This document shows, one piece after another, positions 5,129 through 9,032 of a stretch of DNA of 12,896 nt (within the stretch, counting starts at the first letter, position 1; each line of letters opens with the position of its first letter). This DNA comes from a virus (taxonomy: Duplodnaviria > Heunggongvirae > Uroviricota > Caudoviricetes). The stretch is taken from the IMG/VR virus record IMGVR_UViG_2700989170_000001, positions 1 to 12,896 of that record. One strand, 5' to 3'. The position numbers were made by a program, and so were the translations under genes. The notes under the pieces were generated by a model, which was not told where the DNA came from, did no database searches, and was given only the letters and a program-made list of their open reading frames with translations.

Positions 5129-5879
5129 CGTGTTCACCCTCACGAACTTTCAGGTAGGTATTATCGTTAAGCAGGAAATCAAATCCCTTTTTGTGCCAGA
5201 CGGTTCCGCGTTGATGGTTTGGACGCTCTTCGAACATCCATCGGCAATTTTCGCCTACGTAGCTCAAATAATTTCTCCAGTCCTGCATCGTGAACCCATG
5301 CCCGTCAAGCTGGCGGGTTATCACTCCGGCTTTGCGCCAGAACGTTCGGATCTGGTTTTTACGCTTGTCATTCAGTGCGCGGATTCTTGGCGCTTCAGGA
5401 AGGATTTCGTGGTAAGCATCGACAACATCCTGACAGCTAACGGAAGGTTTTTTCTTGTCAGACTTTTTGTCTGCTGTGGCACTCTCTAATACGTCAGTAT
5501 TAGAGATATTATTTATATTATTGTTTATGGACAACCGTTGGACAACCGTTGGACAATTTTTTGCCTGAAAATCGTCATATTTAACGATTGTAAACAGGCT
5601 AAATTTCTTCCCCATCGAGCAAATATTAAGCATCCCTTTCGACTCAAAAGTCCGTAATAAGCTCCGAACTTTGTTGTCTGGAATGAATGTTTCTCTGACC
5701 AGCGACGGGCGTCCAGTTATCATCTGACCGCGATCAACAGTTATCGGACCGATATCCGTATTGACGACAGTAGATTCGTGATTAGCCTTGAGGATTAAGT
5801 GAAGCCAAAGATGTACTGCCTGAGAGTCCTTATAGAGCCTGCTGTCCATAAACTGGCGGTGTATAGAGACATACCCCAT
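5118..5879 (-). CDS. Replication initiation protein (O-like organiser, with internal iterons), about 253 aa
   Basis: The ORF sits immediately upstream of, and is coupled to, the helicase. It contains direct repeats and an AT-rich tract, like ori within lambda O. The favoured start is the ATG at 5879 (MGYVSIH...), which has AGGAGG 8 nt upstream; the ORF-track start at 5942 has no comparable RBS. Confidence 0.75.
   Translation of the reverse strand: MGYVSIHRQFMDSRLYKDSQAVHLWLHLILKANHESTVVNTDIGPITVDRGQMITGRPSLVRETFIPDNKVRSLLRTFESKGMLNICSMGKKFSLFTIVKYDDFQAKNCPTVVQRLSINNNINNISNTDVLESATADKKSDKKKPSVSCQDVVDAYHEILPEAPRIRALNDKRKNQIRTFWRKAGVITRQLDGHGFTMQDWRNYLSYVGENCRWMFEERPNHQRGTVWHKKGFDFLLNDNTYLKVREGEHDDR
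5528..5556. repeat. Iteron-like direct repeats (probable replication origin) inside the O-like gene
   Basis: GGACAACCGTT occurs twice in tandem, followed by a partial third copy GGACAA and then TTTTTT. The upstream flank (5498-5527) is AT-rich. This matches the lambda arrangement of iterons plus an AT-rich region within the initiator gene. Confidence 0.6.
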
Positions 5880-6770: not shown

Positions 6771-6849
6771 ATAATACGATATGTACTTTTGGAATGCAAA
6801 CAAAAAATACATCTTGTGCATGGATGGTTTTAGTACAGAGCGTAATAAT
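6771..6849. promoter_or_regulatory. Right operator/promoter region (OR with PR; PRM not located)
   Basis: PR candidate on the minus strand: -35 TTGCAT (plus 6794-6799), 17-bp spacer, -10 TATTAT (plus 6771-6776). Operator-like sites are TACGATATGTACTTT (6775-6789) and TTTAGTACAGAGCGTA (6829-6844), sharing the AGTACA-N3-CGTA core also seen in OL. Confidence 0.5.
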
Positions 6850-6861
6850 AAGGATATGAAG

Positions 6862-7515
6862 ATGAAATGGTATGAACTGGCTAGATCCAGAATGAAAGAA
6901 CTCGGCATAACTCAAGAGAAGTTAGCTGAAGAGCTTGGTATGACGCAGGGTGGAATTGGTCACTGGTTGCGCGGATCTCGTCATCCATCTCTTGACGAGA
7001 TTGGTGTGGTGTTTAAATACCTTGGTATTGATAACGTCTCATTCAACCACGACGGTACATTTTCACCTGTTGGCGAATACTCATCTGCCCCCGTTAAAAA
7101 ACAATATGAGTACCCTGTTTTTTCTCATGTTCAGGCCGGGATGTTCTCGCCTGAGCTTAGAACCTTTACCAAAGGTGATGCGGAGAGATGGGTCAGCACA
7201 ACCAAAAAAGCCAGTGATTGTGCGTTTTGGCTTGAAGTTGAAGGTAATTCCATGACCGCACCAACAGGATCCAAGCCAAGCTTTCCTGACGGGATGTTAA
7301 TTCTCGTTGACCCTGAGCAGGCTGTTGAGCCAGGTGATTTCTGCATAGCCAGACTTGGTGGTGACGAGTTTACCTTCAAGAAACTGATCAGGGATAGCGG
7401 TCAGGTGTTCCTACAACCACTAAACCCGCAATATCCAATGATCCCATGCAATGATAGCTGTTCCGTAGTAGGGAAAGTTATCGCCAGCCAGTGGCCTGAA
7501 GAGACATTTAGTTAA
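6862..7515 (+). CDS. cI: CI-type prophage repressor (N-terminal HTH, C-terminal S24/LexA-like autopeptidase), about 217 aa
   Basis: The HTH is [23 protein letters not shown]. There is an Ala-Gly site (VQAGMF), a GNSMTAP serine motif and a downstream FKKL lysine motif. The ATG at 6862 has AAGGA 7 nt upstream (6856 is an alternative). The ORF-track start at 6781 would lie inside the operator region. Confidence 0.85.
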
Positions 7516-7546
7516 CAGCCTCACCACTCTAAAACACACAACAATA

Positions 7547-7575
7547 ACCCGACCTTAGCGTCGGGTTTTCTTTTT
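7547..7575 (+). terminator. Intrinsic terminator downstream of cI
   Basis: A 7-bp perfect stem ACCCGAC/GTCGGGT (7547-7553 and 7560-7566) with a 6-nt loop is followed by TTTCTTTTT. Confidence 0.6.
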
Positions 7576-7626: not shown

Positions 7627-7669
7627 TAGAACATTTTGTATTAACTCAATAAAGTACACATCGTACTAT
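7627..7669 (+). promoter_or_regulatory. Left operator/promoter region (OL with PL)
   Basis: PL candidate: -35 TTAACT (7641-7646), 17-bp spacer, -10 TACTAT (7664-7669). The operator AAAGTACACATCGTA (7651-7665) is, in reverse complement, a 14/15 match to the OR site at 6775-6789. A weaker site is AGAACATTTTGTA (7628-7640). Confidence 0.5.
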
Positions 7670-7715: not shown

Positions 7716-7749
7716 GCTCTTTAACTTCGATGGGGCGCTGACAAAGCGC
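7716..7749 (+). promoter_or_regulatory. nutL-like site (boxA plus boxB)
   Basis: boxA GCTCTTTAA (7716-7724) is followed by boxB GCGCTGACAAAGCGC (7735-7749; stem GCGCU/AGCGC with a GACAA pentaloop, as I recall for P22 boxB). It lies in the PL leader, about 120 nt upstream of N. Confidence 0.6.
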
Positions 7750-7868
7750 AAACAGATACCAAACGAGATGGGTTTGGCGGTGATGTGAATTGCAGCTGCA
7801 ACGACAGCAACCAGAAGATCAGCACCTGGCGCATCACCACCAAAGCCATTTCACATGAGGAAAATATC

Positions 7869-8177
7869 ATGACGGTAATCGTGTACGGGAAATCAACATT
7901 TGCAGGAAATGCCAAAACTCGCCGTCATGAGCGGCGCAGAAAGCTGGCTATCGAGCGTGATGCTATATGCAACATCATCGATTCGATCTTCGGCACAGAC
8001 AGTGAGGAACCTGTTCAGGAAGCCCCGAGAAAACGTTTAATCCTTTCTGAAAAAGCAATATCACTCGGCAACATTCGTAACCAAAATACCGACGAATGCA
8101 GTGGAAGTATTTGCCTGCCAAACGTAGCTCTTTACGCGGCAGGCTACCGGAAATCAAAACAACTGACAGCCAGGTAA
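7869..8177 (+). CDS. N: Antitermination protein N (P22 gp24-like, arginine-rich motif), 102 aa
   Basis: The N-terminus MTVIVYGKSTFAGNAKTRRHERRRKLAIER carries the arginine-rich RNA-binding motif and resembles P22 N as I recall it. The ATG at 7869 has GAGGA upstream. The ORF-track start at 7785 would overlap nutL. Confidence 0.8.
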   Translation: MTVIVYGKSTFAGNAKTRRHERRRKLAIERDAICNIIDSIFGTDSEEPVQEAPRKRLILSEKAISLGNIRNQNTDECSGSICLPNVALYAAGYRKSKQLTAR

Positions 8178-8180
8178 GTG

Positions 8181-8405
8181 ATGAATCAGACATACATTCC
8201 ATCATGCTTGAGAAATCTGCCAAAGCAGAAAGCAAAGCCCCGCAAGCAAGCCATAAAGGACGCTAAGGCAGAGGTTATTGATCAAGCAATACAATTGCTC
8301 AGGGAGGAGTTAAGAAGTGGCAAGCTCGAAGGAATGATGATGCCTTATCAGCGCGGATATCTATCGGCTATTAGTAAGTTGGAAGTATTGAAGAGTGAAT
8401 TATGA
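8181..8405 (+). CDS. Hypothetical protein (74 aa) immediately downstream of N
   Basis: AGGT lies 5 nt upstream of the ATG at 8181. The ORF is charged and lysine-rich, runs in the direction of the PL operon, and I recognise no family. Confidence 0.5.
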   Translation: MNQTYIPSCLRNLPKQKAKPRKQAIKDAKAEVIDQAIQLLREELRSGKLEGMMMPYQRGYLSAISKLEVLKSEL

Positions 8406-8467
8406 ACTATCTGGAATTTCCGGATGGTTCATTGTTTTGGCAGCAAACCACTTATTTGAGGTGAGAT

Positions 8468-8554
8468 ATGGAAGAAGAATTTGAAGAGTTCGAAGAGCAT
8501 CCTCAGGATGTGATGGAACAATACCAGGACTATCCTTATGACTACGACTATTGA
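8468..8554 (+). CDS. Candidate small acidic peptide (28 aa: MEEEFEEFEEHPQDVMEQYQDYPYDYDY)
   Basis: A strong SD GAGGTGA lies 3-4 nt upstream of the ATG. The upstream 20-aa ORF (8402-8464) overlaps the orf74 stop by ATGA and ends inside this SD. It is too small to call with confidence. Confidence 0.3.
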   Translation: MEEEFEEFEEHPQDVMEQYQDYPYDYDY

Positions 8555-8771
8555 TAAGAATCAATGGAGTGGACAATACGAACGACGGCAATGATTGCCA
8601 GAGAACTTGGTAAACAGAACAACAAAGCTGCCTGATAGTGGCCTTTATTTTTGGCATAAATAACAGAATAAACACTGCACTGTGTATTCATTCCAACGAG
8701 TGAATACACGGAGCAATGTCGCTCGTAACTAAACAGGAGCCGACTTGTTCTGATTATTGGAAATCTTCTTT

Positions 8772-8795
8772 GCCCTCCAGTGTGAGGGCTTTTTT
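8772..8795 (+). terminator. Intrinsic terminator upstream of the cIII-like gene (tL-type)
   Basis: A perfect 6-bp stem GCCCTC/GAGGGC (8772-8777 and 8784-8789) with a 6-nt loop is followed by TTTTTAT. Confidence 0.55.
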
Positions 8796-8861
8796 ATATG
8801 CATACCAATAACGCTTCATTCGAGGCGTTTTCGTTATGCAATCAAACAGAAGGAGCATCCT

Positions 8862-9032
8862 ATGCAACAGTTCGCTATTGCAGGGGCGGCATCGGTTCGC
8901 CCTTTCAACCCAATTTTATCGGTACAGCATTCACGAAAAAATATTTTAACCGGAGCAGACTTTAAACAACCAAGAATGAAAAGTTTGCTCGAAAAGCTTT
9001 GGGATATTTTGAAACAACAAGGCCGTCCATGA
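8862..9032 (+). CDS. CIII-like protein (putative FtsH inhibitor), 56 aa
   Basis: The N-terminus MQQFAIAG and the segment SLLEKLWDILKQQG resemble lambda CIII as I recall it (MQYAIAG...ESLLERITRKLRDGWKRLIDILNQPG). AAGGAG lies 6 nt upstream of the ATG. The ORF-track TTG start at 8757 would run through the terminator. Confidence 0.5.
   Translation: MQQFAIAGAASVRPFNPILSVQHSRKNILTGADFKQPRMKSLLEKLWDILKQQGRP

Follow-up and report, generated by a model that had tools for sequence, protein, structure and literature searches.

Introduction

Phage lambda encodes PreS (LPR1), a small RNA that lies between ral and ea10 and whose 3′ end is the known terminator tL2a (bioRxiv 10.1101/2024.10.31.621285). Northern blots show an RNA of about 88 nt together with a more intense band of about 68 nt, its processed form; the sRNA is Hfq-dependent, it is made in the lytic cycle and it is absent in the lysogen (bioRxiv 10.1101/2024.10.31.621285). 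It has been reported that lambda PreS raises the translation of DnaN by opening the dnaN ribosome-binding site and represses alaS, and that deletion of PreS lowers spontaneous phage production two- to four-fold (bioRxiv 10.1101/2024.10.31.621285).

The DNA analysed here, called the window throughout, is a stretch of 12,896 nt from a virus of the Caudoviricetes (IMG/VR record IMGVR_UViG_2700989170_000001). An earlier reading of its letters, the original prediction, had pointed to a non-coding stretch with a long palindrome followed by an intrinsic terminator, and had proposed that it could be a processed small RNA from the PL transcript, a tL1-type attenuator needing N, or a protein-binding palindrome. 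The first of these proposals was essentially right, as the region encodes lambda PreS/LPR1. We put the probability that the whole region, hairpin included, is a ‘PreS module’ of a lambdoid PL operon at about 80%. The element is already known, and the prediction is a correct re-discovery of tL2a and PreS from sequence alone; the only new elements are a covarying hairpin at the 5′ boundary of PreS and a divergent P22-type PreS, which are modest additions.

Results

Identity with Lambda PreS and tL2a

Window positions 8603–8789 are identical in 187 of 187 nt to lambda 34119–33933 on the reverse strand (lambda coordinate = 42722 − window coordinate), which comprises the end of ral and the ral–ea10 intergenic region. 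The identical block thus begins 108 nt before the sRNA and stops with the last base of the terminator stem, and the lambda LPR1 sequence (GAGCAAUGUCGCUCGUAAC ... GCCCUCCAGUGUGAGGGC) is matched at 100% over 8711–8789. The cloning primers P810, P1107 and P1103 used for lambda PreS begin with GAGCAATG / GAGCAATGTCGCTCGTAACT, which corresponds to window 8711, and the full-deletion primer P969 ends in ...GTGAATACACG, which corresponds to window 8710 (bioRxiv 10.1101/2024.10.31.621285). It is almost certain that this stretch is lambda PreS (LPR1)/tL2a. The 5′ end at 8711 is taken from the cloning primers and the Northern size, with a possible error of one or two nucleotides. A discrete species of 100–120 nt including the palindrome had been expected, and in this respect the prediction does not agree with lambda, where RNAs of about 88 and about 68 nt are reported and the sRNA as cloned has its start at 8711, directly past the palindrome.

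The two loci share the operon, the strand, the seed, the complementarity to dnaN and the upstream hairpin, but they part at the end of the terminator stem, where the window continues with TTTTTTATATGCATACC... (GGGC-UUUUUU) and lambda with GATTTTTTATCTGTGAGG... (GGGC-GA-UUUUUU), followed by ea10. This gene, which in lambda stands between tL2a and cIII, is missing in the window, and the cIII leader begins after about 15 nt. Compared with lambda, moreover, ral is internally deleted in the window, and the N protein and the nutL boxB differ in specificity type. The layout lacking ea10 is common: HK140 is 100% identical to the window over 8636–8800, and the same layout is found in Gally, mEpX1 and many Salmonella phages.

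Two other RNAs were considered as earlier names of PreS. The EHEC anti-sRNAs were rejected, being located in the PR′ moron region and unrelated; HnrS was considered from its description only.

Genomic Context

The coordinates of the features are collected in Table 1. The PHROG matches to a cI-like repressor, an N-like protein, cIII, RecT and a Mu-Gam-like protein all lie on the + strand, which is the sense strand of PL, in the order repressor, nutL, N, small ORFs, PreS region, cIII and RecT. PreS is therefore placed on the PL sense strand, downstream of N and of the ral remnant and upstream of cIII. The candidate nutL lies between the repressor and the N-like gene and its boxA is rrn-like, while its boxB, which we take to be of the P22 type, is also found upstream of the PreS element in 72 related loci. 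The N protein of the window is unrelated to lambda N (E = 0.026). A candidate PL promoter (TTAACT, 17 nt, TACTAT) was noted at 7641–7669; it is weak by consensus and was not called by the promoter scan.

Table 1. Features of the PL operon and of the PreS region in the window.
Feature	Coordinates	Strand	Basis
cI-like repressor	6781–7515	+	PHROG match
Candidate nutL: boxA-like GCTCTTTAA (7716–7724), boxB-like hairpin GCGCUGACAAAGCGC (7735–7749)	7716–7749	+	seen in sequence
N-like antiterminator	7785–8177	+	PHROG 271, E = 2e-42
Small conserved ORF	8178–8405	+	PHROG 5305
Small conserved ORF, counterpart of lambda orf28	8468–8554	+	PHROG 16060
RNA hairpin directly 5′ of PreS	8676–8715	+	sequence, fold, covariation, conservation
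PreS, full-length form (about 88 nt in lambda)	8711–8797	+	lambda identity, primers; 3′ end in the tL2a U-tract
PreS 5′ stem-loop, GAGC/GCUC	8711–8724	+	RNAalifold: pairs in 33/33 sequences, no variation
Processed form PreS-S, about 68 nt	8729–8797 (approximate)	+	5′ end from the reported size only, ± a few nt
PreS second stem-loop, AACAGG (8732–8737)/CUUGUU (8744–8749)	8732–8749	+	RNAalifold, 33 sequences
PreS seed	8746–8772	+	identical to lambda; seed mutants and dnaN primers in preprint Table S5
Intrinsic terminator tL2a and Hfq-binding 3′ module	8772–8795	+	terminator scan, lambda identity, preprint
Second terminator-like hairpin in the cIII leader, AACGCTTCATTCGAGGCGTT then TTTCGTT	8810–8837 (hairpin 8810–8829)	+	terminator scan; lambda alignment
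cIII, 56 aa, next gene downstream	8862–9032	+	PHROG 550, E = 1e-22

The ral gene is present as a remnant at 8538–8635, from which about 126 nt of lambda ral (66 aa) are missing internally, with a shift of the frame. The deletion lies between two similar GGRCAAT motifs and leaves an ATG at 8538, 18 codons and a stop at 8592–8594; over its final 60 nt or so, ral still matches lambda without a difference. At the other side of PreS, the Rfam family Lambda_thermo, the cIII thermoregulator, scores 84 bits in phage Oslo (L005, positions 851–909) and was not found in the window (8840–8900), whose cIII 5′ coding sequence (MQQFAIAGAASV...) differs.

Structure, Seed and 3′ Module of PreS

The full-length PreS is predicted to fold at −27.1 kcal/mol (z = −2.9). 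In its second stem, the pair A8735-U8746 is replaced by G-C in all 14 P22-type sequences, and the neighbouring pair changes from G·U to A-U. Two blocks of the seed, UGUUCUGAUUA and AAAUCUUCUUUG, show perfect complementarity over 11 and 12 nt, respectively, to the E. coli dnaN leader (sequence of Table S5 of the preprint), and RNAduplex gave −42.9 kcal/mol for PreS and this leader, versus −21.7 ± 4.2 kcal/mol for shuffled PreS. The 3′ module is of the Hfq type, with a terminator stem of 6 pairs (5 of them G-C), a U6 tail and the U-rich AAAUCUUCUUU before the stem. A prophage with a different N and no ea10 still has an intact PreS which, judging from its sequence, should boost host DnaN on induction. 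A long-range pairing between 8659–8671 and the seed (8745–8758), found in a 243-nt fold, was discarded, being lost in the P22-type sequences examined by eye.

A search for known RNA families had been suggested together with an inspection of the stems for compensatory changes. With Rfam at gathering thresholds no family was found in the window, the best weak matches being rliE and the RyhB terminator (E = 0.8–3), and none for the PreS region in three P22-type loci; the alignment, on the other hand, revealed covariation in the stem, as described below.

Terminator tL2a and the Attenuator Alternative

The predicted terminator was found by the terminator scan as announced, with GCCCTC-CAGTGT-GAGGGC at 8772–8789 followed by T6 at 8790–8795, 62 nt past the palindrome. 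The records of Sf6 and O276 name the homologous terminator tL2A and tL2a, respectively, and that of mEpX1 marks a rho-independent terminator there. The attenuator proposal was also essentially right: the terminator stands in an operon with an N-like gene and a candidate nutL upstream and would be under their control. In one detail it differs, being a member of the tL2 cluster, tL2a, and not tL1. In lambda, RNA polymerase that is not modified by N stops at tL2a, and the N-modified enzyme reads on into cIII and the recombination genes. A literature search for tL2a returned unrelated papers only, the papers of the 1980s on PL termination and processing being outside its reach. The second terminator-like hairpin listed in Table 1, common to lambda and just upstream of cIII, presumably corresponds to tL2b.

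Two more hairpins were noted in the operon. A weak terminator-like one at 8627–8652 covers the ral stop codon (GCTGCCTGATAGTGGC then CTTTATTTTT); relatives of the mEpX1/Sf6 type have a stronger stem there (GGCCGCATAGTCGGCC), and the mEp234 record labels it a rho-independent terminator. Just after the repressor gene, at 7546–7567, a symmetric, G+C-rich hairpin (AACCCGACCTTAGCGTCGGGTT) is scored by the scan as terminator-like on both strands, and it probably ends the repressor (immunity) transcript.

The presence of a strong terminator, then of a second terminator-like hairpin before cIII, with N and nutL upstream, would also suit a simpler explanation, in which tL2a is an attenuator only, the short RNA an inert by-product and the upstream hairpin merely a stabiliser of the 3′ end of the upstream message; in P22 the hairpin indeed follows the upstream stop codon by a few nt. 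We consider this improbable, as the body and the seed are identical to those of lambda PreS, which has been reported to regulate dnaN and alaS through its seed and to have a phage phenotype, and selection, as seen in the covarying second stem, is unexpected for an inert by-product. The part of this explanation in which the hairpin stabilises the upstream mRNA is compatible with the PreS reading.

A Hairpin Ending at the First Nucleotide of PreS

The palindrome had been described as two 9-nt arms, GTGTATTCA at 8682–8690 and TGAATACAC at 8701–8709, separated by a 10-nt spacer and extendable to 11 bp, and this description is correct: the arms and the spacer are where they had been placed, and U8681·G8710 and C8680-G8711 provide the extension. 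As RNA, the structure exceeds it. The spacer itself pairs (U8691·G8700, U8692-A8699, C8693-G8698), giving a core of 14 bp (8680–8693/8698–8711) closed by the tetraloop CAAC (8694–8697), and beyond the A8679/A8712 mismatch three extra pairs (8676–8678/8713–8715) form a lower stem. The predicted fold has −21.8 kcal/mol and z = −7.4, and none of 200 shuffles folded equally well. The foot of the 3′ arm is the first nucleotide of PreS, hence the palindrome lies outside the sRNA and ends exactly at its 5′ end. The segment GAGC(A) is contested between the lower stem of the hairpin and the 5′ stem-loop of PreS.

A perfect inverted repeat of 9 bp is not rare by itself in 12.9 kb: with a loop of up to 12 nt it occurs at 3 places in the window, versus 0.6 expected from first-order Markov simulations. 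Further perfect palindromes of 9–10 bp with short spacers were noted at 5483–5506 (TCTCTAATAC...) and at 6975–7001 (ATCTCGTCA...), the latter within the repressor gene. The palindrome next to PreS was judged to be real because of its folding energy and, above all, because of its conservation and covariation in related phages.

Conservation in Related Loci

Related loci were collected from IMG/VR and GTDB genomes by means of the conserved 5′ segment of the downstream sRNA only (a 19- or 20-mer), which gave 253 real loci, and the hairpin was found immediately upstream of PreS in 252 of them. The lone exception is phage O276, in which IS903 has inserted into the 5′ arm; there (L153, about 560–640) the IS903 transposase gene ends just upstream, the homology to the window starts from 8688, and PreS and tL2a are intact despite the broken arm, making O276 a natural hairpin-disruption mutant. 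The lambda ral–ea10 sequence also occurs in assemblies of unrelated organisms such as Pseudoxanthomonas, Shewanella, Bradyrhizobium, Kitasatospora, Pseudomonas and Neobacillus (L127, L129, L131, L136, L137, L143–L145, L149 and others). These matches are often contigs of about 48.4–48.5 kb, or short ones at about 1x coverage, and look like contamination with lambda control DNA.

In BLAST, P22 and its relatives match the window from exactly 8711 onward, at about 80% identity, and the homology to the Stx phages begins at 8677, at the 5′ foot of the hairpin. The gene that precedes the hairpin in P22 ends in the TAA of the conserved CGAATAAGCAC, a motif located just 5′ of the stem, and the same TAA, as read by eye, is in frame at other loci despite very different upstream flanks.

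P22-type homologues of PreS are found in P22, vB_SosS_Oslo, SEN22 and many IMG/VR contigs, between small early genes and cIII/gene 17. They keep the 5′ segment GAGCAAURUCGCUCGUAAC, the seed core GUUCUGRUUA and the same architecture, with the hairpin, two small stems, the seed and the terminator. Their body, on the other hand, is only about 80% identical, with a 13-nt insertion before the terminator, the terminator stems differ (GCCGCUC.../...GGGCGGC) and the upstream hairpins are of unrelated sequence (types B to E, see below). This divergent form, unannotated and with a partly changed seed (GUUCUGGUUA...), is present in P22 (L003, 701–805), in L005 and L006 and in about 100 IMG/VR loci, and chimeras of lambda-type and P22-type halves exist, e.g., L072 and L122. 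A by-product of the comparison is, thus, that PreS has at least two body types, lambda and P22.

Covariation of the Stem

Among the 253 loci the hairpin stem is of five types, A to E, of unrelated sequence, in register on a near-invariant base, GCAC...GAGC: that of lambda (GUGUAUUCA), that of P22 (AUAGCAGA), that of SEN22 (AAUGCGGA) and two others (AAUGACCA and UAUCGACU). RNAalifold on a long MAFFT alignment missed the hairpin, the arms of types B to D being out of register; in a shorter alignment they are in register, and the covariation was computed on this in-register MAFFT alignment of 28 distinct sequences covering the five types. Standard pairs occupied 93.5% of the alignment cells, and 8 of the 17 pairs were altered on both sides. 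Cells with a double change numbered 52, versus 10.4 ± 2.6 in shuffles, none of the 500 shuffles reaching the observed value, and when the partners were slid by 1–3 columns as a control, the pairing fell to 23–53% of the cells. In addition, 5 loci with the P22-type stem carry a clean compensation of a single pair, AGCAG/CTGCT to AGCTG/CAGCT. The compensatory changes that had been proposed as a check across related prophages are, then, present, and consist of about five wholesale replacements of the stem plus one point compensation, that is, few independent events.

The non-Watson–Crick cells read on the + strand were 55 G·U and 2 A·C. Such an asymmetry matters only for an RNA of the + strand, and it points to an RNA helix on the PL-sense strand, rather than to a DNA palindrome or an RNA of the minus strand. 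It is very likely that the hairpin is a selected RNA structure; its shape appears to be under selection, and the sequence of its stem does not. In a DNA palindrome, template-switch repair could preserve the complementarity of the two arms in the absence of selection on RNA, but the G·U bias is unexplained by it.

These data also bear on the possibility that the palindrome acts as DNA, either as a protein-binding site, as had been proposed, or as a recombination ‘boundary sequence’ for the exchange of modules, without acting as RNA. In the Sf6 record the region carries the label ‘bsq4; boundary sequence’, and the mosaic joints do cluster on either side, close to the 5′ end of the hairpin and right after the terminator stem. 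The types of hairpin, sRNA body and terminator reassort freely; the hairpin is nonetheless kept. A protein-binding palindrome is, however, at odds with a stem swapped wholesale with its pairing preserved, and no single DNA-binding protein could recognise five unrelated stems at one position. Recombination, in turn, needs no complementarity of the arms, which is found all the same. With the strand asymmetry reported above, this leaves the DNA-level explanation with little probability.

Far less probable is that the hairpin, together with CGCTCGTAA, forms a second nut-like site, in the boxB–boxA order of the rrn operons, which would reload or modulate antitermination factors. The motif CGCTCGTAA at 8720–8728 does match the lambda boxA CGCTCTTAA in 8 of 9 positions and starts 9 nt after the hairpin, but boxA-like matches are at the chance level in the window (2 versus 2.9 expected), and the stems of 10–14 bp and their loops are unlike the 5-bp boxB hairpins. 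The hairpin, moreover, does not follow the specificity of antitermination: type A occurs with the lambda-type boxB in 39 loci and with the P22-type in 32, type B occurs with both, and the same hairpin is present in lambda and in the window despite their unrelated N proteins.

Equally improbable is a protein-coding stretch, for which a 31-aa ORF (8716–8811, +; GGAG at 8710–8713 precedes its ATG at 8716) and an antisense 91-aa ORF (8400–8675, −) do exist, but the ATG of the former is ATA in all P22-type relatives, stands only 2 nt from GGAG and opens a frame that crosses the terminator stem and ends differently in lambda and in the window, while the latter matches no PHROG family and overlaps, on the other strand, the orf28 homologue, the ral remnant and DNA that does not code for protein in lambda.

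Discussion

Possible Role of the Hairpin in the Formation of the PreS 5′ End

We infer that the 5′ end of PreS at 8711 is made by processing, because the element sits about 1 kb within the operon and has no promoter-like site in front of it. A promoter of its own for PreS was considered and rejected: the scan found no sigma-70-like site on the + strand near 8650–8710, and it can be argued that its −10 position would fall in the 3′ arm, whose sequence varies among five unrelated versions. The preprint (bioRxiv 10.1101/2024.10.31.621285) makes no mention of a hairpin, a stem, RACE or nuclease mutants and is silent on the origin of the 5′ end; the hairpin offers a cheap and testable hypothesis for the excision of an sRNA from a phage operon transcript.

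The chances seem to us about even that the hairpin acts in the formation of the PreS 5′ end or in the protection of the mRNA boundary. In such a scheme it would delimit PreS on its 5′ side within the long PL transcript. Its most likely role would be that of a site for a structure-guided endonuclease, which would cut at 8710/8711 and free PreS, leaving the hairpin on the upstream message as a protective 3′ cap. PreS would then pair, via its seed, with the host dnaN leader and raise the synthesis of DnaN in the lytic cycle. The cut might be made by RNase III, as at the T7 early sites, by a 3′-side cut next to the mismatch, or by RNase E at the foot of the stem.

The match to the two enzymes was compared on the hairpin itself. 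RNase III would call for about two turns of largely uninterrupted double helix around its cut. The hairpin has 17 pairs and one mismatch in all, but the helix below the proposed cut at 8710/8711 is short (4 pairs and the mismatch), and a mismatch adjoins this cut in types B to E. RNase III sites in vivo usually have G-C pairs between the two cuts, and types B to E fit these rules poorly; that the nuclease is RNase III seems doubtful to us. As to RNase E, the sequence around its putative cut, G|GAGCAAU at 8711, lacks a U at +2 and is a poor match as well.

A stronger form of the proposal, which we offer as a tentative one, is that the hairpin is a dedicated biogenesis signal, maintained in evolution with a freely variable stem, that directs the cut at 8710/8711, after which its fixed base (GCAC...GAGC) would switch to the sRNA stem GAGC/GCUC. 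If this were true, it would constitute an ‘excision cassette’, which would let the sRNA move as a module between phage operons.

Comparison with Known Systems

The early RNase III sites of phage T7 and lambda sib are intercistronic hairpins with an internal mismatch or loop, at which cleavage has been demonstrated, and a single 3′-side cut provides the upstream mRNA with a protective terminal stem. These sites have longer lower stems than the PreS hairpin, for which cleavage is only hypothesised. Among the small RNAs of prophages, DicF, whose target is ftsZ, has no sequence similarity to PreS and acts on different targets. DicF is likewise a small regulatory RNA inside a prophage early operon, the dicB operon of Qin (Faubladier, Cam and Bouche 1990, as cited in PMC12197685). 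StxS of the Stx phages is also an Hfq-binding sRNA generated by an antitermination-controlled terminator that stops part of the transcripts (PMC7547250). StxS, however, belongs to the late operon and to Q antitermination, whereas PreS belongs to the early operon and to N; and StxS is a primary transcript starting at a promoter, whereas PreS sits some 1 kb into its operon and its 5′ end has to come from processing.
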